A stretch of DNA of 64,000 bases from Candidatus Thorarchaeota archaeon (GCA_020348985.1 CP070761.1:1273747-1337746); one strand, 5' to 3'. Counted from the stretch's first letter, positions 41,459 to 55,621 are shown. The notes: a model not told the origin generated them from the letters alone. A program made the numbers and translations.

Positions 41459-42226
41459 TCAGCTTCCAAAACGCCGAGACCTTCGTTCGTAGGAACGCAG
41501 GGCACGCCAAATGTCAATCCTTCTGACTGCAGGCCAATAAATCTGGGCAAAGTAGAGTTCAGAGTATGCAGACTGCCAGAGGAGAAAGCCCGAGAGGCGC
41601 TCTTCGCCAGATGTTCGAATGATGAGATCTGGATCAGGAGTACCATTAGTGTATAGATGTCGTTCGATTATCTGCTCATCTATCTGTTTAGGGTTTAATT
41701 GCCCGTTTGACACTTTTTGTCCTATCGCACGAACTGCATCTACAAGTTCGGTTCTTCCTGAATACCCGATTGCCACATTTAGGATGTGCTCTTCATAGCC
41801 TCCAGTCTCAGCCTCTGCAGCAGCAATTGCTTCTTGTACGTCCTTTGGGAGCAAGTCCACTCTTCCAATAGCCCTTATTCTCACTCTGTGTCGGTGGACG
41901 TCAGGATTGTCAACAACTTCAGAGAACTTCTCTTTGGCGATCCCCATGATTTCCCGCACTTCATCTTCGTTTCGCTGAAAGTTCTCAATGGAGAAAGCGT
42001 AGAGAGTGCACACCTTAACGCCGGCCTCCCAGAGTATACGGAGGACTTCCATGACCTTCTGTGCGCCCCTATGGTGCCCAAACCACGGCGAGTCAGCACC
42101 GTGCTCGCGAGCGTAACGTCGGTTCCCATCAAGTACAAGTCCAACATGTCGCGGGGCATTGTCTTTGTTCAGTTGCCTGAAGAGCCACCACTCGTATAAC
42201 CTGTACACAGGTCCAGCGAAGTTCAA
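41459..42226 (-). CDS. uppS: cis-prenyltransferase (polyprenyl diphosphate synthase)
   Basis: LDGNRRYA, YAFSIENF.R, RTSGEERLSGFLLWQ, RRFG. Confidence 0.95.
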   Translation of the reverse strand: MNFAGPVYRLYEWWLFRQLNKDNAPRHVGLVLDGNRRYAREHGADSPWFGHHRGAQKVMEVLRILWEAGVKVCTLYAFSIENFQRNEDEVREIMGIAKEKFSEVVDNPDVHRHRVRIRAIGRVDLLPKDVQEAIAAAEAETGGYEEHILNVAIGYSGRTELVDAVRAIGQKVSNGQLNPKQIDEQIIERHLYTNGTPDPDLIIRTSGEERLSGFLLWQSAYSELYFAQIYWPAVRRIDIWRALRSYERRSRRFGS

Positions 42227-42309: not shown

Positions 42310-42681
42310 CTAGATCAGTTTCGCTATCTTATCAGCAGCGCGTTTCATGTCCAAGAATATGAGTCCAAGCTTTGCATTGGCCGTTGTTGACACGGTGATA
42401 CAGGCATTCATTCCTGCCTGTACAACGATTAGCCAACCGTCGGCGCCCTTTACATTCACCTGCTCAAGGTTCCCTTTGCCGAGCTCTATAGCTGCCTTCT
42501 CTCCAAGAGTCAACATGGCCGCAGTCATCGCAGCGACCTTTGCTTCATCGACATCTGTCGGCAGGGCAGATACAATTGGAAGTCCCTCAACGCTGACTAT
42601 TGCAGCGGCCTCAATCTCAGGTATACTTCCCTGGAGTTCGTTCAGAACGCCTTCAAGTGTGTCTCCACGGGTCTCGGACAT
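42310..42681 (-). CDS. Roadblock/LC7 (MglB-like) protein
   Basis: IEAAAIVSVEGLPIVS, VAAMTAAML.LG, AKLGLI. Confidence 0.92.
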   Translation of the reverse strand: MSETRGDTLEGVLNELQGSIPEIEAAAIVSVEGLPIVSALPTDVDEAKVAAMTAAMLTLGEKAAIELGKGNLEQVNVKGADGWLIVVQAGMNACITVSTTANAKLGLIFLDMKRAADKIAKLI

Positions 42682-42691
42682 CAGGCCTCAC

Positions 42692-43255
42692 CTACTTGTA
42701 CATTCTTTTTAGGATTACCTCTCGCGCTATGGCTTGAAAGGCTCGTTTTACTCCCACACCTTGAACAGCTATTGTCTCATAAATGGGAACATTGCCTCCA
42801 AGGCCGAGAAGATCTAGCATTTCATCGCGCGACATCCTGTTAGGCAAGTCACGCTTGTTGAGCATGACCACGATTGGAATCTCTCGCCCAAGGGCGTCAC
42901 CCAAAAAGAGCTTGAGCTCCTCAAAGCTTTCGGTATTCTCTTCTCGCTGATCTGGAGAGGAATCTGCAACGAAGAGAATCCCGTCAGTTCCCTGAAGCAC
43001 TACTTTCCTCTGGTGCCTGTGCCTCTTCTGACCAGCTACTGTGAAGACATCAAAGAGCACTCGACCCCCGGCGCTCATTGGAACATAGTCAAAGAACAGC
43101 GTACGGTTGGTTTCGTCCTCGATAGCCGTGAATTCTCCTTTCTGTAGTCCCTCAACCTTTCCGTACAGCCAGCGGAGTGCAGTGGTCTTGCCGCCTAATG
43201 AGGGTCCGTAGAAGACTAGCTTCAGATGGATTCGTCCCTTGTCATCTTTCCTCAA
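42692..43255 (-). CDS. MglA-type small GTPase
   Basis: KLVFYGPSLGGKTT, RTLFFD, TVAGQ, ILFVADS, NKRD. Confidence 0.92.
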   Translation of the reverse strand: MRKDDKGRIHLKLVFYGPSLGGKTTALRWLYGKVEGLQKGEFTAIEDETNRTLFFDYVPMSAGGRVLFDVFTVAGQKRHRHQRKVVLQGTDGILFVADSSPDQREENTESFEELKLFLGDALGREIPIVVMLNKRDLPNRMSRDEMLDLLGLGGNVPIYETIAVQGVGVKRAFQAIAREVILKRMYK

Positions 43256-43384
43256 TACTGCACCTCATTGTGTCGTTGCTGTTCGAATTCATTACGGAAT
43301 GAGCCAAAACCTAGGCTCCACTCCCGGAGGCAAGCAGTTTAGGATTTCAGTCCAATAAAAGCCTTTGTGGAATGGGAAGTGTGT

Positions 43385-43612
43385 TCAGAGGTCTGAGACG
43401 GCTGCGGCGCAAGTTCTCTTAATGAGAAAGACTAGGTGGATTCTCAGAGAGAGCATCTTTTGGGCAGCGCCTCGAACAATCGGTCTCTTGCTGTTGATCC
43501 TCAGTTCCATTCTGTAGTGATCAAGTGATCTTTGTCTCGCAAGCATTGCCTCAGTGTCGTTGAAGCTCTCTGTATCGCCAGTGCTTGATCGCAAGTAGAC
43601 CACATTGGTCAT
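43385..43612 (-). CDS. Possible small hypothetical protein
   Basis: 75-aa ORF divergent from the microprotein operon; no recognisable motif. Confidence 0.3.
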   Translation of the reverse strand: MTNVVYLRSSTGDTESFNDTEAMLARQRSLDHYRMELRINSKRPIVRGAAQKMLSLRIHLVFLIKRTCAAAVSDL

Positions 43613-43663
43613 GAATCTTATGGAAGTGTTTGTAAATTACGTTAAGAGTTAAGCTTGAATTAA

Positions 43664-43728
43664 AAACAAAAAATATTTAAGATGTCAGATGTAATACTAT
43701 TAGCATGCGAGGGAGGAAACTTCGCATG
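43664..43728 (+). promoter_or_regulatory. BRE/TATA promoter and 5' hairpin of the microprotein operon
   Basis: A-rich run then TATTTAAG (43674-43681); stem CATGCGAGG/CTTCGCATG (43704-43728) starts about 23 nt downstream. Confidence 0.6.
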
Positions 43729-43744
43729 AAGAGAAGGTGTTTGC

Positions 43745-43852
43745 GTGACAAACTCGGAAGAAAAACTAACCTCCCGATGGAAGGAGATGAATAGGCGTCT
43801 CAAGACGAGTGAGAGCCTATACTTGGACTTCAAGGAAGGAGGTGAGCAGTAG
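43745..43852 (+). CDS. Microprotein A (35 aa) MTNSEEKLTSRWKEMNRRLKTSESLYLDFKEGGEQ
   Basis: GAAGGTG RBS; stop overlaps the next GTG (TAGTG). Confidence 0.5.
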   Translation: MTNSEEKLTSRWKEMNRRLKTSESLYLDFKEGGEQ

Positions 43853-43962
43853 TGGCTCTAGCCAAGGACGCTAAGGAAGCGTCAAACGAGAAGATGAAGA
43901 AAGTGGCCAAGGTTCAGTCGACCGAGGCTCTAGCAAATGCATACCTGTACAAAAGAAGGTAG
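43852..43962 (+). CDS. Microprotein B (36 aa) MALAKDAKEASNEKMKKVAKVQSTEALANAYLYKRR
   Basis: GGAGGTG 7 nt upstream of GTG; similar to microprotein C. Confidence 0.7.
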   Translation: MALAKDAKEASNEKMKKVAKVQSTEALANAYLYKRR

Positions 43963-43980
43963 TAACGGAGGTGCATAAAA

Positions 43981-44076
43981 CTGGCAATTGCAAAGAACAA
44001 GAAGATAAAGCGACGCAATGCCAACCGTAGAGAAATCTCTACGAGGGCCATTGCTGACGCTTATTTCCGAAATTGA
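43981..44076 (+). CDS. Microprotein C (31 aa, CTG start) MAIAKNKKIKRRNANRREISTRAIADAYFRN
   Basis: GGAGGTG 7 nt upstream of CTG; shares MA(L/I)AK...ST.A(L/I)A.AY with B. Confidence 0.65.
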   Translation: MAIAKNKKIKRRNANRREISTRAIADAYFRN

Positions 44077-44092
44077 TCATAGGTAGATCAGG

Positions 44093-44221
44093 ATGGCTAA
44101 CATAGGCACAATGATTTCAGAGAACCTTGCCAATCAAAGGAGCCCTGAGCAAGGCAAGAATCATCAAGTTTTCTTCGACAAGTGTGCTCGTGTTGGCGAC
44201 AATATGAGCACACCCTTCTGA
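44093..44221 (+). CDS. Possible microprotein D (42 aa)
   Basis: ATG 16 nt after the stop of C, weak AGGT RBS; no similarity to B or C. Confidence 0.25.
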   Translation: MANIGTMISENLANQRSPEQGKNHQVFFDKCARVGDNMSTPF

Positions 44222-44725
44222 CATCTACACAGAGCTTGTTTTCGTCAAGGTGTCAACCTTGATTCTCATTCTTGTCTTCGTAACGCCTGGTGCTAGAGGG
44301 GTCAACAACAGTTGACTTAATTCTGCTTGGGAGAGAAAAAGCATACGAGATTTGCTGGAAGACTTTTCCAAAGGCATAGAACCTAACTTCATTCTGTAGT
44401 TCATCTCGGGCCTATTCTTGGGAAGAACTGTAAGGACGAATATCTGGATCAGTGCTCCGAAGTGATTGGCAACAGGCATCCTCACACCCACTGTCTTGAT
44501 TGCAATCTCATACCTCATGGGCTACTAGAGTGAGAGAAAATGAAACTGGGACATCCAAGTACATGATTAGAACTGCTGCCTAGTTTAGCCACCTTCACAT
44601 TGACCAGAGTTATTATGATTAACATACCCGGATTCAAATCACTAATGGAATATACAAAATATCAAACGAATAATGAAAAACCTTAAGTTGCGCTTGAGCA
44701 GCGCACTTCAGAGTCAAGGGCAGAG

Positions 44726-44809
44726 ATGAAGACAAAGCCCAAATCTGGACCAAGAGGCCAAAGAATCACTGAAGACATTTACGTCTTACTCAACAGTTCT
44801 TTCCGATAG
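44726..44809 (+). CDS. Possible microprotein E (27 aa) MKTKPKSGPRGQRITEDIYVLLNSSFR
   Basis: Preceded by BRE/TATA-like GAAAAACCTTAAG and a TGCGCT-N5-AGCGCA palindrome. Confidence 0.4.
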   Translation: MKTKPKSGPRGQRITEDIYVLLNSSFR

Positions 44810-44959
44810 CTGTGTTCTTTACATCAAACATTAACAGCGGAGGAATTTCATGAATCCAAGGTACAATAATGCTGATTGTTTCTTAAGCCGCGATTCATGA
44901 GAAGGCCTGATTGCTTGTCCAGTCTCGTGAATTCATAGTTTCCGAGAGGCAGATTACAC

Positions 44960-46762
44960 ATGTTGGAGAAAGAAGTGAGAAACCAAAGAATAAGATTGTA
45001 CACGCTAGCAGCGTTGGTCGGAGTAATATCTGGTGTGACAGCCATTGCTTTCAGAGGACTCATTTTGGTTGTGAGCCTAGTTTTCGTATCTCTGCCTGTG
45101 TATCTTGGATCCTGGGGGTGGCTTATCGCGCCAGCTATTGGTGGACTTCTAGTGTCAATAATTGTGAAACGATTCGCACACGAGGCAAAGGGACATGGGG
45201 TTCCCGAACTCATCGATGCCTATGCACTTCGTGGAGGAATGATACGGGCCAGGGTTCCTCTTTTGAAGAGTCTAGCCTCAGCCATCTGCATAGGATCTGG
45301 TGGATCCTGTGGACGGGAGGGGCCCATAGCACAGATTGGTGGTGGTGCGGGCTCTGCTCTAGCCAGTTTCCTTGGACTTAATCGCAGGATGACAAAGACA
45401 CTTCTTGTATGCGGAACAGCGTCAGGGATTGCAGCAACCTTCAACGCCCCACTAGGAGGAGCCCTCTTTGGGATTGAAATTGTGGCTGGAGGAATCGCAG
45501 GGTTCCCTATAGTTCCTATAATCTTGTCCTCCGTGATCGCAACTGCACTGGCCGATGCCGTTCTTGGTACACAGCCATCATTTCAGGCGCCTTTGTTCTA
45601 TCTTGACAATTACATGGAGCTGGCATTCTATTTGACATTGGGCCTGATTCTTGGGATAATGAGTGTTCTTTGGTCACGGGGTTTCTACCAAATAGAAGAT
45701 ATATTGGAGAGAATGAAGGGCTCGAAACATGCGCTCACTGCTTTTGGTGGACTTCTGGTTGGCGCATTGGCACTGTTGGCTCTCAACATTGAGGCCGCAT
45801 TCGGATACACAGGGGTCATGAAACCAGGAGAACCATACTTCCCAGCTATCATGGGGGTAGGGTATGCCTTTGTGGATGCCACTTTGCTTGGACTGGTCGG
45901 AGTCAGTGTTCTTGTTATGTTTGGTCTACTGAAGTTCTTTGCCACATCAATCACTCTAGGCTCTGGAGGGTCTGGAGGCGTCTTCGCGCCGACACTCTTC
46001 ATAGGTGCGGCATTTGGAGGAGCGTTTGGTCTTGTCATAAACATTGCATTCCCAGAAATCGTTTCTCAGCCAATGGCTTATGCCTTGGTGGGTATGGCAG
46101 CTCTGTTTGCAGGTTCGGGCAGGGCTCCAATAACATGCATCGTGATGCTCATGGAAATGACAAACGACTACTCACTGATACTTCCACTCATGGCTGCAGT
46201 CTCTATGTCGTATCTTGTTTCTTCTTCAATTGAGGTTGAGAGTATCTACACTTTGAAACTGGCTCGTAGAGGCATCGACATCAAACGAAGTCAATACGTG
46301 GGGGCTTTGAGGGAAGTGAAGGCATCTCAAGTGATGACTGCTAGCCCCACAATTCTGAAACCTGACATGACAGTTCCGCAAGTTCTGAGAATAGTGGATG
46401 ATACCCATCATACCAAGTTTCCTGTAGTAGATTCTGACAACAAGATAGTTGGCACATTGATCACAGAGAACTTATTCGGTGGGCCTGAGGGAGGCTGCCC
46501 GGAGTGTCTAGTGCGGGACTTGATGAACGTAGAGGTTCTGATAGTCAGTTCTGAAGCTACAATGGACAGCGTTCTACACGGGATGCTAGAACGAGACGAA
46601 GGGCATGCTGTTGTGGTCGATCCTTTGAAACCAGAGAGGATGATAGGTTTTCTGACGAAGGCCGATGTTCTCAGTGCCTATGAGCTAGCCATTCTAAGGC
46701 TGAGGGAGGACGGAGAAGATGTTCATGAGATTGATCCACTGGACATGATTGCTTTCAGATAG
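44960..46762 (+). CDS. ClC chloride channel/antiporter with C-terminal CBS pair
   Basis: GHGVP, GREGP, FNAPLGG..F..E, GVFAP, ESIY; CBS domains. Confidence 0.93.
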   Translation: MLEKEVRNQRIRLYTLAALVGVISGVTAIAFRGLILVVSLVFVSLPVYLGSWGWLIAPAIGGLLVSIIVKRFAHEAKGHGVPELIDAYALRGGMIRARVPLLKSLASAICIGSGGSCGREGPIAQIGGGAGSALASFLGLNRRMTKTLLVCGTASGIAATFNAPLGGALFGIEIVAGGIAGFPIVPIILSSVIATALADAVLGTQPSFQAPLFYLDNYMELAFYLTLGLILGIMSVLWSRGFYQIEDILERMKGSKHALTAFGGLLVGALALLALNIEAAFGYTGVMKPGEPYFPAIMGVGYAFVDATLLGLVGVSVLVMFGLLKFFATSITLGSGGSGGVFAPTLFIGAAFGGAFGLVINIAFPEIVSQPMAYALVGMAALFAGSGRAPITCIVMLMEMTNDYSLILPLMAAVSMSYLVSSSIEVESIYTLKLARRGIDIKRSQYVGALREVKASQVMTASPTILKPDMTVPQVLRIVDDTHHTKFPVVDSDNKIVGTLITENLFGGPEGGCPECLVRDLMNVEVLIVSSEATMDSVLHGMLERDEGHAVVVDPLKPERMIGFLTKADVLSAYELAILRLREDGEDVHEIDPLDMIAFR

Positions 46763-46880
46763 ATCTCCTGACGAAGACTAGGAAAGTGGGTTCTGGTGGG
46801 AGTCTGAATGATTACTGGTGTTGCATCTGCATCCATGACCAGATTCAATAGCGTATCCGAGTTAACCATAGTGAACCAGA

Positions 46881-47114
46881 TTGCAGGTATTGGCATATGT
46901 ACACACTGACAAAAAGGATTCTAGATGGAAACCCCGGAACTACAATCATGTAAAGGGACTGATTTCCAGCTATTTGGTCAATGTCGATTCTTCAGAGAGG
47001 ACCGGAGAGGTGTTTTTCTTCGATACGAGAGAGAACCTCGATGCCTTCAAAAACTCCAAACTGGGGAAGAGCATTGGAAAAGCTTTGGAGCTTGTTCAGC
47101 TCGAATTCGAGTGA
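46881..47114 (+). CDS. Small dimeric alpha-beta-barrel-like (YdhR-like) protein, tentative
   Basis: VKGLISSY...GEVFFFDTRENLDAF..S pattern. Confidence 0.45.
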   Translation: MQVLAYVHTDKKDSRWKPRNYNHVKGLISSYLVNVDSSERTGEVFFFDTRENLDAFKNSKLGKSIGKALELVQLEFE

Positions 47115-47180
47115 TTGGTATTTTTGCGAAACTGAGAACCCACTATGGGCTAGTTACTACGGATGGAAGTTTTAGTCTGT

Positions 47181-47654
47181 CTACACTCTTTCAAGCTCAG
47201 CCAGTGCAGACTTGAGATCTTCTTCGTCAAGCTCATCCTTGGTTGGCGCAGTTGGTTCTACTGCTAGGAATTTGTTGAGCTCATCAGCTAGCTGCACGCC
47301 CTGCTTCTTCATGACAAGTCGGATGAGACCGATGTTTACCTCAGGACCGGAAACGACACAGAGGACTCCCTTTCCACAGGCTGATGCGAAGATCTTACCT
47401 TCCGAAAACTCTGATGTGACAATCTCAAGTTCACCGATCTGAAGGTTCTTCCCCTGCTCTTCACTCGCACAGAAGACCGCGCTTGCGATTGCACCTATGG
47501 AATCCACGTCCACGGGGTAGTATGAGAGCTTGCTCACGTTGGCAATTGTAAGTCCGGTTTTGTCAACCAGTATGACCTTTGAGATTCCCTTGTCTTGACG
47601 GATTATCTCTGTTAGGATTCTGTCGAAAGCTTTTGGATCGCTCATTGATTCCAC
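47181..47654 (-). CDS. Roadblock/LC7 protein with acidic C-terminal tail
   Basis: VILVDKTGLTIA, IGAIASAVF, VNIGLIR; tail ELDEEDLKSALAELE. Confidence 0.88.
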   Translation of the reverse strand: MESMSDPKAFDRILTEIIRQDKGISKVILVDKTGLTIANVSKLSYYPVDVDSIGAIASAVFCASEEQGKNLQIGELEIVTSEFSEGKIFASACGKGVLCVVSGPEVNIGLIRLVMKKQGVQLADELNKFLAVEPTAPTKDELDEEDLKSALAELERV

Positions 47655-47655
47655 C

Positions 47656-47949
47656 TCATTTCTTGAGGACCACCAGTATTAGTCCTTCACCTGGTTCAGG
47701 TGCGATGTTAATCTCGCCCTTTTCAGTGTCGAGAGTAAGGAACGAGAGCTTGCCCTCGTCTAGTTCGTCGACAGCATCAAGGGCTTTGCCTACAAGCGAC
47801 GTTATGATTGCAGCGACGTTCTCGGTTGTATCTGGGTCCAAGTCACTGCTCAGAGGTAGTCCTTCCATGGTAGTGACAACCACGCCACGGACGCCCTCCT
47901 GGGATTTTAGCTGTGCAATGACTGTATCAAGTTTCTCTTGACTTATCAA
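47656..47949 (-). CDS. Roadblock/LC7 protein
   Basis: GVRGVVVTTMEGLPLSS, VAAIITSL, LILVVLK; TTG start inferred. Confidence 0.88.
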   Translation of the reverse strand: MISQEKLDTVIAQLKSQEGVRGVVVTTMEGLPLSSDLDPDTTENVAAIITSLVGKALDAVDELDEGKLSFLTLDTEKGEINIAPEPGEGLILVVLKK

Positions 47950-48048
47950 TATCTGGAAGCCCCACTGCATCAATTGTGCATTTCGTAGTCTGTACCCCAA
48001 TCTTGGGTATTTCAGACTTGTGGTTACGTGTACCGTCTTGAGTGCGTG

Positions 48049-48087
48049 TTTTGCGCAAAATGATATAACCTTGTATTACTTTGCGCA
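48049..48087. promoter_or_regulatory. TTTGCGCA sites flanking the TATA box of the roadblock operon
   Basis: Perfect palindrome TTTTGCGCAAAA 48049-48060, minus-strand TTATAT at about 48063-48068, second TTTGCGCA at 48080-48087. Confidence 0.5.
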
Positions 48088-48096
48088 CTACTTCCG

Positions 48097-48134
48097 AAAT
48101 AAAAAGATGTGACGAGGCTTGCTGTCCTCGTCAC
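48097..48134 (-). terminator. Hairpin plus T-tract terminator after the Sec23/24-like gene
   Basis: 9-bp GTGACGAGG/CCTCGTCAC stem followed on the minus strand by CTTTTTATTT. Confidence 0.7.
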
Positions 48135-48142
48135 CTAAACCT

Positions 48143-49714
48143 CTAATCCTCCTCCTCTTCGAAGAGTTCCTTGGAAGCTTTTCTCATTTGTTTGAGCTGA
48201 GCAGTAGACATCTGATCTGCCATTGCTGAAGGTGCACCCGCTGACGCAGCCATCTCCATCTCTTCGAGCCGCTCCATACTCTCCTCTTCTGAGGCAAGAA
48301 CTTCGTCAGCCCTGTCAAGAGATTTTGCTACTGGCTTAGGAGCGCCTTTTGCTGTCTTCTTGAGCGCAGCTCTAAAACTAGAGATTCGTTCCTTGCCCTT
48401 CTTTGTGTCACCACGAAGCGATTCTTCACCCGCCTTTTGAGCGACAAATGTGGCGCCAACGGTTGGGTCAAGTGTTTCTACAATCTCTTCTTCCTTCTTC
48501 GCCACCTTGAGCTTCTTTGTCACCGCTCTGACTCGTCGAGCTCCTTCTGCATCTGTGTACTCGACTTGAACTTGGATGGGAACTTCAGGGGTTTCAATCT
48601 TGCCGTCTGGCTCGACCTCGAAGTAGAGTTCGTGGTCTTCACCAACTACGCCAATCCTTCCTTCGGCCTTCTCTTTGAGCTCCTCAACAACCGCTCTTGA
48701 TACACCAGATGCATCCTTGACTTTCATTCCAGGCGGGGTGACCAATCGGACCTCCACATCACGTCCAAGCAGACTTGCACCAGCCAGCTCTGACAGACTT
48801 CTATCAAGCTCGTTGGGCTGGACATAGTACATCTGCCCACCGGTTGCCTCTGGCAATAGACCTAGAGTCCTTAGCTCCATGCCTGACCCAGAAGCGATTC
48901 CAACGACATCAAGCGAAGTACCAATCTTGCGGTACATGCCACCCATCTTCTCGTAGTATTCATTGGCGGGCGTCACCTGATATCCTTCAAGAGCTCCGAT
49001 TCCTTCATTGGCAAGACCGTCGGTGAGTAATACAACTCTGTCTACATTTCTGTGCTTGGCAACCACATAGCCCATGGCTACTGCCGGTCCAAGTGCAGTT
49101 CCACCTTGATCTCGAAGTGCCTGAACGTGCTTCTTCAGCTTTGCAGCGTTGGGTCCAACGTTGACCATCTTTACTCTGTCCAAGAGCTTCTTGGTGGCAT
49201 CCAAGATTTGGTCCAGACTCGGATAGGTCTCGCGAGGAAGCTCGAATCCCTCTCCTGTTTCCATGTTCCGTGCGACTACTCCGCTTTCAAACTCGATAAG
49301 TCCGAATAGCGTATCAGGCGAATTCGCAGCCAGACTATCGATTGATGTGCTGAGGCTTCTCTTGACGGCCGCCAGATTGGCTCCTGCCATCGAGCCAGAA
49401 ACATCAATTAGAGCAAGAAATGCTCTTCCTGCCGCAGATTCTATACCCGTAGTCTCATCTATGGTCTCAGGTGGGGGAGTGATTTCAAAATCGGCCTCGT
49501 CTCCAGCCACAACAACCTCACCTTCGATTACATTGAGGGTGCCACAGAAAGTGCAATTGAAATGCTTGCCGACTTTGGGGTCTTCCTTTATCTCTTCTAC
49601 ACTGAGGAGAAAGCCATTGCATTTGTGGCATGCTATAGGCTTGCCCACAATCTTTGTCGTTTCGCGCGCAAGATCTCCAAATTCAACACGCACGACATAT
49701 GGTATATCGCTCAT
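48143..49714 (-). CDS. Sec23/Sec24-like protein (zinc finger, vWA trunk, beta-sandwich)
   Basis: PIACHKCNGFL...FNCTFCGTLN finger; LIDVSGSM, GGTALGPA, LLTDGLANEG, ATGG; IQVQVEYT..G.RRVR. Confidence 0.82.
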   Translation of the reverse strand: MSDIPYVVRVEFGDLARETTKIVGKPIACHKCNGFLLSVEEIKEDPKVGKHFNCTFCGTLNVIEGEVVVAGDEADFEITPPPETIDETTGIESAAGRAFLALIDVSGSMAGANLAAVKRSLSTSIDSLAANSPDTLFGLIEFESGVVARNMETGEGFELPRETYPSLDQILDATKKLLDRVKMVNVGPNAAKLKKHVQALRDQGGTALGPAVAMGYVVAKHRNVDRVVLLTDGLANEGIGALEGYQVTPANEYYEKMGGMYRKIGTSLDVVGIASGSGMELRTLGLLPEATGGQMYYVQPNELDRSLSELAGASLLGRDVEVRLVTPPGMKVKDASGVSRAVVEELKEKAEGRIGVVGEDHELYFEVEPDGKIETPEVPIQVQVEYTDAEGARRVRAVTKKLKVAKKEEEIVETLDPTVGATFVAQKAGEESLRGDTKKGKERISSFRAALKKTAKGAPKPVAKSLDRADEVLASEEESMERLEEMEMAASAGAPSAMADQMSTAQLKQMRKASKELFEEEED

Positions 49715-49810
49715 GACTCGTTTCGACTCTGGAAACGCATCAGAGCTGGTTCTCAGCATTTGGATCAATCCTCGAGTTGTGAGCGACACTCAACTACAAG
49801 AGCTTTCCGT

Positions 49811-49892
49811 GTCTCAGCCTCCTTCTCCGGATTCGCCACAGTCTTTGCACAAGCGGGGTCATCATCCCGCAATCCAGATTCATCACTGAAAC
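49811..49892 (-). ncRNA. Structured RNA element with C/D-like and K-loop motifs in the Sec23/24-like leader
   Basis: GTGATGA...CTGA closure, TCTGGATT/AATCCGGA stem, GCGGG-ATGATGAC-CCCGC hairpin. Confidence 0.5.
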
Positions 49893-50086
49893 TAGAGAGG
49901 TCACCATGCATGCCAAAGGAGCAGGGACTCCAATGGAGTGATTCATCTCTAAGTAGTGGATTGGAATTGGTACTTCCGTGCATACTATATTGGTATTGGG
50001 AGAAAGGATGACTGGGCGGCTGATTGGAATCTCGTTGCGGAATTGTGTTCTTTACAAATCACAATTGTGGGTGTGGGGTACACATC

Positions 50087-50449
50087 TTAAGGCCACAGCC
50101 ATACAGTGTCGAAGAAGGTCACGTTCCGGAGGTAGCTCTCTGAAGTCACCGTTCCTCTCACCACAACAATAGAATACAACCATGAAAATGTCAATCTCTC
50201 ATCAGAGAACATTAGACTGCCTGTTCCATCTGACAAGGTGGCAATGTAAGTACCACCCATCTGCTCCTGAAGGACTTGAGTAATGTTTCCTTTGACTGTG
50301 ACAGCAGTACCAATTGCAATAGTTCCATCGTTGATGTCGGAGATACTGGTTAGCTGGCCGATGCCATCATGCCACGCGACTACTGCTGCCGCCGAAACAA
50401 TTGAGACTAGCGAAAGAAGTGATACTACAAGTAGAATCCGTCTCCTCAA
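50087..50449 (-). CDS. Secreted or anchored OB-fold protein
   Basis: RRR plus hydrophobic N-terminus; VTVKG.I, LSDGTGSL, VVVRGTV. Confidence 0.7.
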   Translation of the reverse strand: MRRRILLVVSLLSLVSIVSAAAVVAWHDGIGQLTSISDINDGTIAIGTAVTVKGNITQVLQEQMGGTYIATLSDGTGSLMFSDERLTFSWLYSIVVVRGTVTSESYLRNVTFFDTVWLWP

Positions 50450-50747
50450 GCCAATCCTCCTCTGAACAACAATGCTCCTTGATTGTGTTAAGGTTTGTGA
50501 CAGTATAGGTTCTGTACTCGTAAACTGGTTGTTCAGAGCTTCTGTTCAGTTGAACTCTATGTCACAACATAGGCAATAATGACCTCTCCAGAAGGTATAC
50601 GGCCTCCTCGCCATTTGCGGTTTTAAGTAAATCGCATTCGGAGCGGTTCATCTAATCAAAAAGAATAAACCGATTGTCACAACGCGTAAGATTTAAACTG
50701 GAGAGCAGTCTGAGCAACTAAGAGAGCCTGTAAGGAGAGTTGTTGGA

Positions 50748-51116
50748 ATGGTTGACAAGGCCAAGATTGAGAGTATTGTTGCAGATACGATGGCAGCAAA
50801 TGCTGACATTGAAGGGGTTGTTGTCTGTGATTCAAAGGCCAAGGTGATCTTTGGGCACACTGTGATGGCAGGTGTTAAGCACTCAGAAGTTGCGGATTTG
50901 GCAGTCAAGATTGCCACCAACTCCTCTGGGCTAGCTGGAAAGCTTGACAAGGGTGGACTTAACGAGGTCAGCATCGCTTCAGAGAAAGGCTTCATAATTG
51001 TACTCGGCGATGTGAAGATGGTTCTTGCAGGCATAGCAGGGGAGGGCGCTAGAGAATCTCTAGGGCTACTGAGAATGGCCCTCAGGCGTGCCCTCAGAGC
51101 GATGGTCGCTGACTAG
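50748..51116 (+). CDS. Roadblock/profilin-fold protein
   Basis: IEGVVVCDSK, LDKGGLNEVSI, SLGLLRM; AGGAG RBS and TTTAAA promoter upstream. Confidence 0.8.
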   Translation: MVDKAKIESIVADTMAANADIEGVVVCDSKAKVIFGHTVMAGVKHSEVADLAVKIATNSSGLAGKLDKGGLNEVSIASEKGFIIVLGDVKMVLAGIAGEGARESLGLLRMALRRALRAMVAD

Positions 51117-51317
51117 AATCAAAGCGCGCTGTTAGGGGTATCTTTTTCTGTGCATATAGTGTAGACCGCGCAACCGTGAGATGTATATCCAGATATACTG
51201 GCAGTATTACGGGTGTGTTACCAACCGCTAAGATGGGATATATTCCCTTGATAATCGGGGTAGACACGCCAAAAGGCATGCGAAAACGACACTCATAACA
51301 CCGGAAGGGAACGGATC

Positions 51318-54300
51318 TTGGTCTTCATTGACAAGCTTGTTTGCAAAGGCTTCAAGTCATTTGGCCGAGAGACCGTTACTATAAGATTGAACCCCGGTTT
51401 CACTTGCATTGTTGGCCCGAATGGTTCCGGAAAATCAAACGTTGTCGATGCAGTGTTGTTCGTCCTAGGCCAGTTAAGCGCCAAAACACTTCGAGCAAAC
51501 GTGTTCTCTGATCTCTTGTACTCTCCGCCGAAGCCTGATATGCCCCCAAGGGCCAAAGCCGCCTCTGTGGAGCTTCATTTCAACAACACCGATAGAAAGC
51601 TCCAGATAGAAGCAGACAAGGTCGTAATTGAAAGGGAGCTGGACGAATCAGGAAAGTCTGTTTGTAGGATAAACGGCAAGACAGTCACAAGAACCCAAGT
51701 CTTGGAGGTTCTTGGCAGCATCGGCGTCGATCCTAATGGGTACAATCTCGTGCTTCAGGGAGAGATAGCACAGATTGTCAAGGTAAGCCCAAATGACAGA
51801 AGGAAGCTCATCGAAGAAATCGCAGGGATATCTGCATATGATGAGCAAAAGGAGCGCGCCATGAAGAAACTTGCAGAGAGCGAGGCCAATCTTGGCAAAG
51901 TAGACATGCAGCTTCAGGAACGACGACGACAACTTGAGAGGCTAGAGCTCGAGAGAACCGATGCGCTACGCTACAATAGCATTCAAGACCAAATCAGGCA
52001 AATCAAGATTGACAATACTGCATGGAATCTAATCAAACAGAAACGACGAATAGAGGCAATCGATCATACTCTTCAACAGCGTGCCGTTGAGGCAGAGAAT
52101 CTGCAAAATCAGACCAAAGAGATCGAGAAGGGGATACTAGAAAGCGAGGCAGAGATAGAGGACATTGACGCTGAAGTCGATAGAATTGCCGGTGCAGATG
52201 CAAAGCTTGTTTCTGAGCAATACGGTCTAGTATCAGCTGCTCAGGACCATGCCGCCGCTGACCTCGATCGTGCAAAGAGTGAGTTCGATAGAACTTGGCA
52301 AGAACGTGAGAGCCTTGAGGGAGAGCTAAGGTCCGTAAAGGATGAGATAGAGCAATCAGAACAACAGATAGAGGAACAGGAAAAGAAGCTCTCTAGATTG
52401 GATGTTGAGATTGAGGAGACCTCTAAGGAGGTTGCTAGATTGGAGTCCAGACTGGAGAATGAACAGTCTTCGCTTCTCGAAGCAACTCACAGACTTCAGG
52501 ACCTCAACAAACAGATGGCTGCTTTGGATGAAGGAGTGTCAGAGGTACGGTCAGCCCTCAAGTCCGACAGGCGCGAACTTGGCCTTGTATACGAAGAACT
52601 CCAAGATACTGAGGAAGGATTGAGAAAGACGTTAGCCGAGCTTGAGGAGCTAGATGATATCTATCCTGCCAAGAGGACCAAGCTCGAGGAGGCAGAGGAA
52701 ACAGAGAAAGCTAAGCGCGCCGAGCTATATGACATTGAGGAGCGTCTAAAGACTGTTGATGCAGAAGTAAGAGAATCATCAAAAGTAGTTGGCTCGGCAC
52801 GGGATGAGCTCATTAGATTGGAGGCCCGGAAAGAGGCACTCCGGGAAGCCGAGGAGGCATTTCTGAAGAGGAGACGGGCCATTGCGAAAGTGCTGGAATT
52901 GAGGGATTCTGGAACAGTTGCAGGCATTTTGGGCACTGTAGCAGAACTTGGTACGATAAACCCGGATTATGCAGTGGCTTTAGAAGTTGCGGCCGGAAAC
53001 AGGCTTTCTCACATTGTTGTGGAAGATGAACACGTAGCAACTGAATGTGTAAACACTCTCAAGCGAGAACGGGTCGGTCGATCTTCTTTCATTCCTCTGA
53101 GTAAGATAAAGACACGCGCTCCCGGAAAGCCAGTCAAGGAAGAGGGTGTTGTCGGCTACGCACTGGACCTTGTGAGTTTCGATTCCAAAGTGCGGCCTGC
53201 TTTCGAGTTTGTATTCACAGACACTGTTGTGACTGAAGACTTTGAATCCGCAAAGCGGCTTGGGTTTAAAGGCAGAAGAGCAGTTTCGCTTGATGGAGAT
53301 CTTGTCGAAAGATCCGGATTAATCACCGGGGGACATTATCAGAGAGTAGCTACAGGGTTGTCGTTGCAGGAAGAGGATAGAAGTCCTGATGTAGCAGAGC
53401 GATTGGGCGGACTTGAGGAGATACTGGAATCTCTCAAGACTCAACAAGAAGACCTTAGAAAGCAGAAATCGGTTCTTGATCGCGAGCTTCAGGACCTTTC
53501 GAAGAAGAACTACAGAGACAGAATGGACCTCGAGAGGATTGAGGAGAGCCTTGAAGAAAAGAAAACCAGGGTCGTCACCCTGGAAGAGAAGCTTGAAAGT
53601 TCGAAAGCGTTGACGAAAGCACTTGAACAGCAAATATCGGAACTCCAGGAACGTGATACGGAATTAACGGCTCATCGAGAGGACGTACGCTCCAGACGAG
53701 ACGGCGTCAATGAAACTCTTGTCAAGTCTGATGTAGCGAACATCACTCAAGAGGGCAAAGATCTGAAGGAAATCCTTGAACACTATAAGCGTGAGAGAGA
53801 GACTCTTCTCGGTGAGATTACTGGATTGAGAGTTGGCTTGGATGAACGACTGAGACCCCGCATGGACGACTTGGATGGTCGGCTCAAGAAATTCAACGAT
53901 TTGCTGCCGACATTGGAGAAAGATGTCAAAGATCTCGAAGGCAGGCTAGCGGAGAAACAGAAACAGTTCGAGGATTTGAAACTCGAAAGGGAACGGATTG
54001 ACGGAGCAGTCAAAGACAAACGTGTCTACCAGTTGGAATTGAAGGAGAAACTCCGGAATCTAAGACTCGAACTCGAGGAGACAAGAGAAAATCAGACCAA
54101 CAATGAGAAGGCTGTCTATAGGCTCACAAGCGAGAGAGGGCGATTGGAGACAGACTCCGTAGCATTGTTTGCTGAACTGGATTCATTCTGTGAGGCGCAG
54201 GAAGAAGTCAGCAAGAGAGAGCAAAAGGAGGAGCCTACTCGTAGAGAAATTGACAACATGGATGAGAAGATTCTCGAGCTACAAAGAGAGCTTGAAGCGA

Positions 54301-54908
54301 TGGGACTTGTCAACCTGAAATCAATTGCTGATTACGAAATAGAGCGTGAGAAGTACGACGAAATAGTGGACAAGAAGAGGCGATTAGAAGACGAACACAA
54401 GGAGATTCTTGCATTCATGGAAGAAATTGAGGCTGAGAAAACGCGTAAGTTCCTGCAAGTATACAACGACATTGCAGACAACTTCTCGTCTGTCTTTGCG
54501 AAGCTATCCCCCGGAGGTGAAGCCAGCCTTATGCTTGAGAATCCGGAACATCCTTTGATGGGAGGCATAACGGTGCGGTCAAAGCCTCGCGGCAAGGATC
54601 TGGTCACGCTGGATGCAATGAGCGGCGGCGAGAAAACACTGACCGGCCTCGCACTGATCTTTGCTATCCAATTATACAGTCCGGCCAGCTTCTACGTATT
54701 CGATGAGATTGACGCCGCGCTAGATGATGTCAATGCCCACAACGTAGCTCTGTTGATCTCTGAAATGGCGAAATCGTCACAATTCGTAGTTGTGTCTTTG
54801 AGAGATACAACAGTTAGAAAGGCAGACTTGCTGATTGGCGTATCTAACCAAGATGGAATTTCAAGAATCGTTTCCGTGGACCTAGAGGAGGTGGGAGCTA
54901 CCGCATGA
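51318..54908 (+). CDS. smc: Chromosome segregation protein SMC
   Basis: GFKSF, GPNGSGKSN, hinge GR..FIPL and G.ITGG, MSGGEK, FDEIDAALD. Confidence 0.97.
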   Translation: MVFIDKLVCKGFKSFGRETVTIRLNPGFTCIVGPNGSGKSNVVDAVLFVLGQLSAKTLRANVFSDLLYSPPKPDMPPRAKAASVELHFNNTDRKLQIEADKVVIERELDESGKSVCRINGKTVTRTQVLEVLGSIGVDPNGYNLVLQGEIAQIVKVSPNDRRKLIEEIAGISAYDEQKERAMKKLAESEANLGKVDMQLQERRRQLERLELERTDALRYNSIQDQIRQIKIDNTAWNLIKQKRRIEAIDHTLQQRAVEAENLQNQTKEIEKGILESEAEIEDIDAEVDRIAGADAKLVSEQYGLVSAAQDHAAADLDRAKSEFDRTWQERESLEGELRSVKDEIEQSEQQIEEQEKKLSRLDVEIEETSKEVARLESRLENEQSSLLEATHRLQDLNKQMAALDEGVSEVRSALKSDRRELGLVYEELQDTEEGLRKTLAELEELDDIYPAKRTKLEEAEETEKAKRAELYDIEERLKTVDAEVRESSKVVGSARDELIRLEARKEALREAEEAFLKRRRAIAKVLELRDSGTVAGILGTVAELGTINPDYAVALEVAAGNRLSHIVVEDEHVATECVNTLKRERVGRSSFIPLSKIKTRAPGKPVKEEGVVGYALDLVSFDSKVRPAFEFVFTDTVVTEDFESAKRLGFKGRRAVSLDGDLVERSGLITGGHYQRVATGLSLQEEDRSPDVAERLGGLEEILESLKTQQEDLRKQKSVLDRELQDLSKKNYRDRMDLERIEESLEEKKTRVVTLEEKLESSKALTKALEQQISELQERDTELTAHREDVRSRRDGVNETLVKSDVANITQEGKDLKEILEHYKRERETLLGEITGLRVGLDERLRPRMDDLDGRLKKFNDLLPTLEKDVKDLEGRLAEKQKQFEDLKLERERIDGAVKDKRVYQLELKEKLRNLRLELEETRENQTNNEKAVYRLTSERGRLETDSVALFAELDSFCEAQEEVSKREQKEEPTRREIDNMDEKILELQRELEAMGLVNLKSIADYEIEREKYDEIVDKKRRLEDEHKEILAFMEEIEAEKTRKFLQVYNDIADNFSSVFAKLSPGGEASLMLENPEHPLMGGITVRSKPRGKDLVTLDAMSGGEKTLTGLALIFAIQLYSPASFYVFDEIDAALDDVNAHNVALLISEMAKSSQFVVVSLRDTTVRKADLLIGVSNQDGISRIVSVDLEEVGATA

Positions 54909-55621
54909 GTGATGAAGAAGGCTCGCCTTTCTGGGCAGGACCTCCATATATTCTCCTGACTGATGTTCTTCAACTTGACAAGGTGAAACCATGGAATGTC
55001 GATGTTGGGAAGCTTGTCGCAGGCTTCCTTCGTGAAATGAGACGGCTGGGAGACATTGATTTCAGAATATCGGGAAATGCACTCTATTCCGCCTCAGTGA
55101 TTTTCATGAAAAAGACAAGGGAACTTGTCGAGCTGGGTCTATTACCCCCTGAGGAAGATGATGAGGACGAGGAACTAGAGATTCCTCTGATTAGGCCTCC
55201 CTTTAGAGTCACGAATCAACGCGTAACGCTTCAAGAACTACTAATCGCAATGGACAGAGTGTTGAGCAAGGGTGTAAGAAGACGTTCACCACCCACGAAA
55301 AGGAGACTAAGAGGTAGAGCGGACCCGTTGGCCTTCAAGATGGATTCTGCGAGAGCCAACGTTGAGGAGAATATTGCTCAGGTATACGGAGACCTTTGTG
55401 AGATAATGGAGATTGATGAAGTTGTCAAGTTTGTAGATATTCTTGTGAATAACAGCAGGATTGAGATTGTTAGAGTGCTCTTTGCACTCCTTCATCTTTT
55501 CGCACGCTCCTACATCGATATATGGATGGATGAGAGTGAGGAGATCTGGGTACAGCTTCTAAGCCCTCCACCGGAAGAAGATTCTGAAGAAGTCATAGAG
55601 CAGCAGGTCAGCCAGAGGTGA
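54905..55621 (+). CDS. scpA: Kleisin ScpA
   Basis: PWNVDV, DFRISG, VTLQEL, LFALLHL; ATGA overlap with smc. Confidence 0.88.
   Translation: MSDEEGSPFWAGPPYILLTDVLQLDKVKPWNVDVGKLVAGFLREMRRLGDIDFRISGNALYSASVIFMKKTRELVELGLLPPEEDDEDEELEIPLIRPPFRVTNQRVTLQELLIAMDRVLSKGVRRRSPPTKRRLRGRADPLAFKMDSARANVEENIAQVYGDLCEIMEIDEVVKFVDILVNNSRIEIVRVLFALLHLFARSYIDIWMDESEEIWVQLLSPPPEEDSEEVIEQQVSQR

Follow-up and report, generated by a model that had tools for sequence, protein, structure and literature searches.

An MglA-type GTPase with four roadblock paralogues as a candidate Asgard-wide switch, and its Sec23/24-like neighbour in Thorarchaeota

Does the proximity of genes for a small GTPase, four roadblock proteins and a Sec23/24-like protein betray an early coupling between a GTPase switch and a vesicle coat? 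The question is raised by a locus of a Candidatus Thorarchaeota archaeon that occupies positions 42,310 to 51,116 of the stretch of DNA analysed here (GCA_020348985.1 CP070761.1:1273747-1337746; 64,000 nucleotides, hereafter the window, with positions counted from its first letter). An earlier note on the window had proposed that these genes form one module composed of a GTPase, a hetero-roadblock regulator and a coat-like effector. Among the few clues to the functions of the 'eukaryote-signature' proteins of Asgard archaea are gene neighbourhoods. The comparisons described below point to a different arrangement: the locus is probably the Thorarchaeota version of an old Asgard-wide switch, consisting of one MglA-type GTPase and four roadblock paralogues designated RblA to RblD, and the Sec23/24-like gene is a separate neighbour. 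The features of the locus are the following, with lengths in nucleotides (nt) or amino acids (aa).

42310-42681, minus strand: RblA, roadblock/LC7 protein, 123 aa (Pfam Robl_LC7, E 1e-16)
42692-43255, minus strand: MglA-type small GTPase, 187 aa, TTG start (RTLFFD and TVAGQ motifs; phmmer search of the PDB)
43256-47180, no strand: insertion of 3925 nt in the RblB-MglA spacer, with the ClC gene, a 1.7-kb stretch poor in open reading frames (ORFs) and a 77-aa ORF
43355-43370, minus strand: element CCACAAAGGCTTTTAT, resembling a B recognition element and TATA box (BRE/TATA-like), likely promoter of MglA-RblA, kept in almost all Thorarchaeota loci
44960-46762, plus strand: ClC chloride channel with CBS domains, 600 aa (Pfam Voltage_CLC, 5e-93, and CBS)
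46881-47114, plus strand: 77-aa ORF of the inserted DNA, flanked by the ClC gene and RblB (ORF list)
47181-47654, minus strand: RblB, MglB-like long roadblock with an acidic C-terminal helix (Pfam Robl_LC7 and MAPKK1_Int)
47656-48000, minus strand: RblC, short LC7/LAMTOR5-like roadblock (Pfam Robl_LC7, 8e-18; LAMTOR5, 7e-7)
48008-48023, minus strand: BRE/TATA-like element CCACAAGTCTGAAATA with the upstream motif TGCGCAAA, likely promoter of RblC-RblB, kept in Thorarchaeota loci
48097-48134, minus strand: terminator-like 9-bp GC-rich hairpin followed by a T-run, directly 3' of the Sec23/24-like stop codon
48143-49789, minus strand: Sec23/24-like protein, 548 aa (Pfam Sec23_trunk, Sec23_BS and vWA)
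50087-50449, minus strand: 120-aa ORF whose product has a membrane helix at the N terminus and a weak OB-fold match, specific to this genome and outside the module
50748-51116, plus strand: RblD, divergent fourth roadblock (family-profile evidence), with smc-scpA next on the same strand

As an inventory, the earlier note was accurate. ORF listing and Pfam recovered all six genes that it named (the GTPase, the four roadblocks and the Sec23/24-like gene), together with its 3.9-kb interruption between RblB and the GTPase gene. Its roadblock with an acidic tail corresponds to RblB, and its divergent fourth roadblock is RblD. The family assignments likewise stood, by Pfam for RblA, RblB, RblC and the Sec23/24-like protein, by profile for RblD, and by the closest PDB structures and invariant motifs for an MglA-type GTPase with an intrinsic arginine (RTLFFD) and TVxGQ. 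That the individual families were already known in Asgard archaea also agrees with the literature, in which the component families, Thorarchaeota MglA-MglB pairs and gelsolin-less Sec23-like proteins have all been published. The single-contig 3.16-Mb genome harbours approximately 12 roadblock genes (11 Pfam matches plus RblD), four of which sit within these 9 kb where ∼0.03 would be expected, a clustering far beyond chance. The Sec23/24-like gene is present in a single copy, and the genome contains ∼29 matches to the Arf model of Pfam. Rfam and tRNA scans of the whole window disclosed no RNA genes, and a search against NCBIfam returned no informative names.

The GTPase is classed by its sequence as MglA-type and not Arf/Sar-type. 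Its best relatives of solved structure are the MglA proteins of Myxococcus xanthus and Thermus thermophilus (E 1e-38), the best eukaryotic match being Arf4 (4e-12), and its ETNRTLFFD and TVAGQ segments align with ETDRTLFFD and TVPGQ of MglA. Pfam, which has no MglA model, calls the protein Arf/Ras. Residue R51 aligns with the intrinsic switch-I arginine of MglA and does not vary among 14 orthologues drawn from 12 families. The G3 motif spans residues 72-76, with a threonine in place of the usual aspartate and the catalytic glutamine at its end; T72, G75 and Q76 are invariant. Across 12 Asgard families the orthologues share the P-loop GKTT, R51-T52, T72xAGQ76 and N133KxD without exception. Identity amounts to 86-99% within the Thorarchaeia and 57-68% in other Asgard families. 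The TTG start is preceded by a GAGGTG ribosome-binding site. Wuichet and Sogaard-Andersen (PMC4316618) assign a gene to the MglA family when it is coupled to an MglB/roadblock gene within four genes, and described MglA systems with two coupled MglB genes; here RblA begins 10 nt downstream of the GTPase gene, with which it is probably cotranscribed, and RblB is next upstream in the family consensus. Two paralogues of the GTPase occur elsewhere in the genome G000 (C1:36646-39069 and C1:2556151-2556690; 39% and 53% identical), the first lying 1.7 kb from a gene for a 315-aa roadblock-domain protein. Another G000 GTPase gene (C1:2511602) is divergent from a roadblock gene (C1:2511132).

The four roadblock proteins are distinct from one another. 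RblA, RblB and RblC score 60.7, 36.9 and 64.5 bits against Robl_LC7, above the Pfam cut-off of 23 bits; RblD alone falls below it, with 17.1 bits (E 0.005). Nevertheless, profile comparisons show RblD to be a genuine roadblock: its orthologues reach E 6.5e-13, 12 out of 12 family members match the model, the family profile finds the solved roadblock 9jq8 at 1.5e-23, and the RblD and RblB profiles align with 95% probability in hhalign. A literature search found no paper on the PDB entries 9jq8 and 9jue. RblA has its best solved relative in the Thorarchaeota SMTZ1-45 roadblock 7f8m (E 8e-25), and in Pfam the RblA and RblD families match the generic roadblock family only and not the LAMTOR models. 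All 12 RblB family members examined match both Robl_LC7 and MAPKK1_Int (LAMTOR3). Between families, RblB identity is 58-74% and 54 alignment columns are invariant; its profile matches MglB best (1.7e-6) and LAMTOR2 more weakly (2e-3). By fold, an MglB-like and a LAMTOR2-like identity for RblB could not be separated, as LAMTOR2, Roadblock3 of MK-D1 and MglB match about equally. RblB is the only one of the four with an MglB-type C-terminal helix after the roadblock core: a variable linker leads to a conserved helix with the consensus EELKAALxELEKV across families, and the AlphaFold 2 (AF2) model, with a predicted local distance difference test score (pLDDT) of 72, comprises an alpha-beta-alpha core, a low-confidence linker and a helix at residues 144-155. 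The RblC family matches LAMTOR5 in 11 out of 13 members, and the best solved relatives of RblC are the Asgard protein 7f8f (1e-24) and the dynein light chain roadblock (5e-13). The TATA-like element CCACAAGTCTGAAATA lies 8-23 nt upstream of the TTG of the longest RblC ORF; from the position of this element and of the TGCGCAAA motif, the true start is probably the ATG at 47970, further in, which gives a protein of 104 aa.

How old is this association, and does the Sec23/24-like gene share in it? MglA orthologues, taken at 57-68% identity and E <= 1e-45, were detected in 247 of 400 genomes of the phylum and Sec23/24-like genes in 147, with different family distributions: many Asgard families possess the GTPase without the Sec23/24-like protein, and in families f22 and f23 the latter is present and few or no genomes reach the MglA threshold, a shortfall that divergence may explain. 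Twenty loci with MglA orthologues from 13 further families display the order RblC-RblB-MglA-RblA, often with a divergent RblD, with smc-scpA on one side and a cis-prenyltransferase gene on the other; none contains a Sec23/24-like gene. This bare cassette was recorded in families f2, f4, f6, f9, f11, f14, f15, f16 and f33, and also in metagenome-assembled genomes of Jord-, Odin- and Baldrarchaeota. RblD adjoins RblC in f1 (Thorarchaeota), f2, f6, f14, f16 and f33. Genomes outside Thorarchaeota that contain both the GTPase and the Sec23/24-like gene keep them unlinked (f14 and the Jordarchaeia family f16); in genome G203 the cassette is at 1.97 Mb and the Sec23/24-like gene at 2.83 Mb.

Within the class Thorarchaeia the picture is different. 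The Sec23/24-like gene is near-universal and single-copy (79 of 87 genomes), and twenty 20-kb loci from ∼17 genera conserve the order RblD <> Sec23/24 - RblC - RblB - MglA - RblA - UPPS - hyp397, UPPS denoting the cis-prenyltransferase gene. A second, larger set of species representatives included 54 informative loci with enough upstream sequence. The Sec23/24-like gene lies between RblD and RblC in 51 of these, from ∼16 genera and all in the main Thorarchaeota family; RblC and RblB are there in all 54, and RblA follows MglA in 70 of 72 loci. However, unrelated neighbours, namely a radical SAM gene, an acetyl-CoA synthetase-like gene, smc and scpA, are equally collinear over the whole 20-kb region, so synteny within the family is uninformative on function. 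The exceptions leave the cassette untouched. In G001 (sister family f2) and G005 the arrangement RblD <> RblC-RblB-MglA-RblA-UPPS is intact and the Sec23/24-like gene is on another contig. G082 is a clean in-place deletion that left just the last ∼25 codons of the Sec23/24-like gene and its terminator hairpin, and G079, 98% complete by estimate, has no Sec23/24-like gene. MglA identity is 86-97% in these four genomes and 93-97% in G082 and G079.

A quick tree of the Sec23/24-like proteins follows taxonomy and places the unlinked f2 as sister to the Thorarchaeota family. For these two reasons a single relocation of the gene into the cassette, in the ancestor of that family, is favoured as the simplest history, although the quick tree is not decisive. 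The claims of the earlier note thus diverge in their fate. The link between the GTPase and the roadblocks is far stronger than it assumed, the cassette being common to many Asgard families. The synteny check that it had suggested in other Thorarchaeia upheld adjacency in 51 of 54 loci and broke down in f2, G005, G082 and G079; by its own test of conserved linkage, the tie to a coat effector fails, since adjacency is limited to one family of Thorarchaeota and the signals described next point to a separate unit. Of the proposed module, the GTPase-roadblock half is strongly supported; the effector half is not, a tie particular to Thorarchaeota keeping a small probability.

Four transcription units are suggested by sequence signals: the Sec23/24-like gene by itself, RblC-RblB, MglA-RblA and RblD. 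The second-last perhaps continues into the cis-prenyltransferase gene, and RblD is perhaps transcribed with smc-scpA. The Sec23/24-like gene appears as a separate unit because it has its own terminator-like hairpin and because conserved BRE/TATA-like elements precede RblC and MglA. The hairpin and T-run also occur in relatives and persist in G082 after deletion of the gene body. The TGCGCAAA motif and the CCACAAGTCTGAAATA element (48023-48008) are strongly conserved, including in loci devoid of the Sec23/24-like gene (G005, G082 and G079). The CCACAAAGGCTTTTAT element (43370-43355) precedes the MglA start by ∼100 nt, on the side of the insertion that faces MglA, and aligns in almost all Thorarchaeota loci despite variable flanks. 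A shared regulator of the RblC and MglA promoters acting through the word CCACAA(A)G was considered and dropped: its 53 occurrences in the genome are not clearly above chance, and no co-regulation is claimed; so small a number also indicates that the word is not a general promoter feature. In relatives, the promoter region of the Sec23/24-like gene has a conserved TTAATA-type box and a GGAG site, without this word. In the genome under study that promoter and ribosome-binding region has been replaced by ∼800 nt of inserted DNA (49760-50747). The Sec23/24-like protein probably starts at ATG 49759, further in than the longest ORF; the first Met codon of its relatives reads ATC in this genome.

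How might such a switch operate? By homology with bacterial MglA-MglB, a roadblock dimer would dock on the switch regions of MglA-GTP and position the GTPase's own R51 and Q76, thereby controlling hydrolysis. The dimer could be composed of RblB alone or of RblB and RblC, whose gene is just upstream of that of RblB, and, as in MglB, the conserved C-terminal helix of RblB may exert allosteric control as well. RblA and RblD would likely supply additional adaptor or platform subunits, in the manner of MglC or of Ragulator's LAMTOR pairs. The monocistronic Sec23/24-like unit would have entered the site between RblC and RblD in the ancestor of the main family of Thorarchaeota; in the present genome the ClC gene and other DNA would have been inserted later between RblB and the MglA promoter, with no unit broken. 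The position of the Sec23/24-like gene would then reflect inherited gene order, and would not be evidence of a primitive vesicle coat.

The Sec23/24-like protein itself is convincingly of this fold. Beta-barrel strands, a zinc ribbon, a vWA trunk, a beta-sandwich and a helical domain succeed one another, and the AF2 model (pLDDT 87) retrieves Sec24a/Sec23 in Foldseek with E 1e-29 and a template-modelling (TM) score of ∼0.7, as well as ArnAB (8s05) at 6e-16; the family profile matches yeast Sec24 at 3e-20. In Sec23, the gelsolin domain carries the arginine that activates Sar1. This domain is absent here, as beyond residue 430 the model has helices only, and the protein ends at 548. No Sec23/Sec24 paralogue pair exists: one copy is found in this genome and in most genomes of the class. 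An alignment of 23 sequences from 11 Asgard families (including f1, f2, f13, f14, f16, f19, f21-f23 and f30) shows the four zinc-ribbon cysteines (C54, C57, C79 and C82) and a complete MIDAS (an adhesion site dependent on metal ions; D129xS131xS133, T231 and D257, pattern DxSxS, T, D) to be invariant in every member; yeast Sec24 has another residue in place of the aligned MIDAS aspartate. Published work reports Asgard Sec23-like proteins that have no gelsolin domain and bind an Asgard Arf weakly and independently of nucleotide (PMC11914678), and describes ArnAB as an archaeal counterpart of the Sec23/24 core, engaged in phosphorylation-dependent regulation of the archaellum (PMC12852372).

These properties bear directly on the model of the earlier note, in which MglA, a hetero-roadblock regulator and the Sec23/24-like protein of Thorarchaeota constitute one module, the last acting as nucleotide-state-dependent effector or membrane platform in a primitive GTPase-coat pairing. 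The genuine Sec23/24-like fold, the near-universal single-copy gene (79/87) and the adjacency kept in 51 of 54 informative loci speak for it, and so do independent roadblock or small-GTPase neighbours of the gene in other lineages: a roadblock with a helical extension, encoded in the same direction 210 nt upstream, in f19, a 500-aa roadblock-domain protein at 1.1 kb in f21, and Rab-like GTPases 0.8 kb upstream in one f22 genus and at 4 kb in f13. The GTPase neighbours are nonetheless at chance level, since each genome has 30-70 small-GTPase genes, and the clustering of neighbours around the gene in 14 lineages outside Thorarchaeota yielded just ABC ATPases and generic small GTPases. Such a module is furthermore at odds with the absence of linkage wherever both genes occur in the other Asgard families examined, the sister family included, with the separate terminator and the downstream units' own promoter-like elements, and with the loss of the gene from G082 and G079, where the cassette is unchanged. 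The adjoining GTPase is not of the Arf/Sar type (the other Arf-Pfam matches are elsewhere in the genome), the gelsolin domain that seats the Sar1-activating arginine is missing, and the Arf binding reported for Asgard Sec23-like proteins is just weak and nucleotide-independent (PMC11914678). All told, this pairing seems improbable. A narrower version, in which the MIDAS-bearing Sec23/24-like protein was recruited in Thorarchaeota as a nucleotide-state-dependent partner of the MglA/four-roadblock switch, for example via the acidic C-terminal helix of RblB or via MglA-GTP, is quite doubtful too; if true, it would join a small-GTPase platform to an ancestor of the COPII inner coat in a prokaryote. 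Another conception treats the Sec23/24-like protein as a metal-dependent, ArnAB-like signalling or adaptor scaffold that operates independently of the GTPase switch next to it and whose MIDAS binds a ligand that is acidic or phosphorylated. The invariant MIDAS and zinc cysteines, set against the aspartate lost in yeast Sec24, and the Foldseek match to an archaeal Sec23/24-core regulator agree with it. The much closer similarity to Sec24/Sec23 (1e-29) than to ArnB (6e-16) does not, and no FHA partner, kinase or phosphatase gene adjoins the gene in its immediate neighbourhood. This scaffold is compatible with the Asgard-wide switch and, though on balance unlikely, deserves some credence; the invariant MIDAS offers a specific handle on the real ligand.

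The genes that flank the cassette suggest yet another possibility. In f1, f2, f14 and the Jordarchaeia family f16, smc and scpA come after RblD in the same orientation, with gaps of 100-350 nt (window 50748-55621; L076, L077, L087, L088, L094 and L051), an arrangement that could represent cotranscription or just old synteny. On this basis the main role of the cassette might be in cell division or chromosome segregation, exerted by way of RblD and the SMC-ScpA condensin, and not in membrane or polarity signalling. But smc could have a promoter of its own within the gap, the sequence retrieved around RblD in f6 and f33 showed no SMC gene, plain ancestry can account for the conserved order, and we know of no roadblock-condensin interaction; a main role of this kind is very unlikely. 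On the other flank, the cis-prenyltransferase (UPPS-type) gene (window 41459-42226) is downstream of RblA here and in most cassette loci: in f1, f2, f4, f6 and f14, 2 kb away in f16 and on the opposite strand in f33, a linkage as deep as that of the roadblocks themselves.

Several observations weigh against the reading of an Asgard-wide switch with a separate Sec23/24-like neighbour. The gene is kept at its site in ∼94% of Thorarchaeota loci, which is compatible with a functional tie specific to this group. The copies outside the cassette, L033 (G005), L048 (G001) and L049 (a second copy in G081), have long branches in the tree (0.8-1.9 substitutions per site, the median being 0.2), so that constraint could have changed after these unlinked or duplicate copies left the locus. 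Roadblock neighbours of the Sec23/24-like gene are mildly over-frequent, in ∼3 of 14 lineages against ∼0.6 expected by a rough estimate, and those of f19 and f21 are the sole comparative hint, a weak one, of a GTPase-coat module. The units are deduced from motifs, and read-through from the Sec23/24-like gene into RblC-RblB is possible; likewise, the roles of the roadblocks as GTPase-activating proteins or guanine nucleotide exchange factors and the composition of the dimer are putative, being taken over from homologues.

Two insertions interrupt the locus. The RblB-MglA spacer has a median length of 245 nt in 65 Thorarchaeota loci and reaches 1-3.8 kb, with unrelated cargo, in several genomes (loci L099, L125, L131, L158, L169, L050 and L031): it is a recurrent insertion site in Thorarchaeota, and the 3.9-kb interruption is specific to this genome. 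A TetR-like regulator and a Zn-ribbon methyltransferase-like gene are common to the spacers of L099, L125 and L131, and other cargo consists of surface or membrane proteins. In L031 (7237-7749; G010, same genus) the spacer measures 1 kb and contains, on the opposite strand, a Rab-like small GTPase gene split into two ORFs, which may be a frameshift or a pseudogene. The ClC gene has orthologues (50-70% identical) on other contigs in relatives; it moved into the spacer and is not part of the module. The insertion, including a 1.7-kb stretch without long ORFs (43256-44959), has no repeat in the genome and, the promoter element apart, no similarity to the spacers of relatives. The ORF list includes small ORFs of 35, 36 and 42 aa in the 1.7-kb stretch, which matched no RNA family. 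A second genome-specific insertion separates RblD from the Sec23/24-like gene, where relatives have just 160-270 nt; its 120-aa ORF (50087-50449) has no homologue in any related locus compared.

The cassette can also be placed beside earlier work. Three roadblock/longin and two small-GTPase families belong to the Asgard core genes, and the operon described in that study is a different one (Liu et al., preprint 10.1101/2020.10.19.343400); the GTPases of MK-D1 are generally not in operons with roadblock genes (Tran et al. 2024); and an AlphaFold 3 model of a Thorarchaeota MglA-MglB pair has been reported (PMC13408092). The literature search encountered no description of the five-gene MglA/four-roadblock cassette. 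The informative, deeply conserved unit is this MglA switch with its four roadblock paralogues, some of them LAMTOR3- or LAMTOR5-like; it is a testable candidate for the origin of multi-roadblock GTPase platforms such as MglB/MglC and Ragulator, and the comparison cautions against taking the position of the Sec23/24-like gene in Thorarchaeota as a sign of a proto-COPII coat.

Four known systems invite comparison. With COPII Sec23/Sec24-Sar1 (PDB 1m2o, 1m2v and 5vng) the Sec23/24-like protein shares the order of zinc finger, vWA trunk, beta-sandwich and helical domain at a TM score of ∼0.7. It differs in having no gelsolin domain, hence no Sar1-activating arginine, in the complete MIDAS, in being encoded by one gene without a paralogue, and in its neighbouring GTPase, which is MglA-type and not Sar/Arf. 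ArnA-ArnB of Sulfolobus (PDB 8s05), an archaeal Sec23/24 core, likewise combines a vWA domain with MIDAS, a beta-sandwich, a helical domain and a zinc-finger element. There, however, the zinc finger and the FHA domain reside on the separate chain ArnA in a phosphorylation-driven system, whereas here the zinc ribbon is fused and no FHA or kinase gene adjoins; the similarity is also weaker than that to Sec23/24.

The roadblocks recall Ragulator (LAMTOR2-5) and the Rag GTPases, in which several roadblock subunits assemble under a small GTPase, as those of the cassette could in principle pair. The RblB family passes the LAMTOR3 model (12/12), RblC passes that of LAMTOR5 (11/13), and LAMTOR2 is among the top fold matches of RblB. 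This match is no better than that to MglB, no LAMTOR1-like scaffold was identified, and the GTPase is a single MglA-type domain of 187 aa, without the C-terminal roadblock domain or the heterodimeric state of Rag proteins. A further counterpart is MglA-MglB(-MglC) of M. xanthus and T. thermophilus (PDB 3t12, 6izw, 6h5b and 7ct3). The Asgard cassette departs from it in its four distinct roadblock paralogues instead of one or two and in its archaeal, pan-Asgard distribution close to smc-scpA and the cis-prenyltransferase gene; partners of the RomR/RomX/RomY type were not seen, and no gliding or type IV pilus machinery is implied. Yet both have a single-domain GTPase with a switch-I arginine, TxxGQ for DxxGQ and the catalytic glutamine, a GTPase gene immediately preceded by a roadblock gene in the family consensus (the mglB-mglA order), a linker and C-terminal helix in RblB as in MglB, and additional roadblock paralogues, as with MglC.

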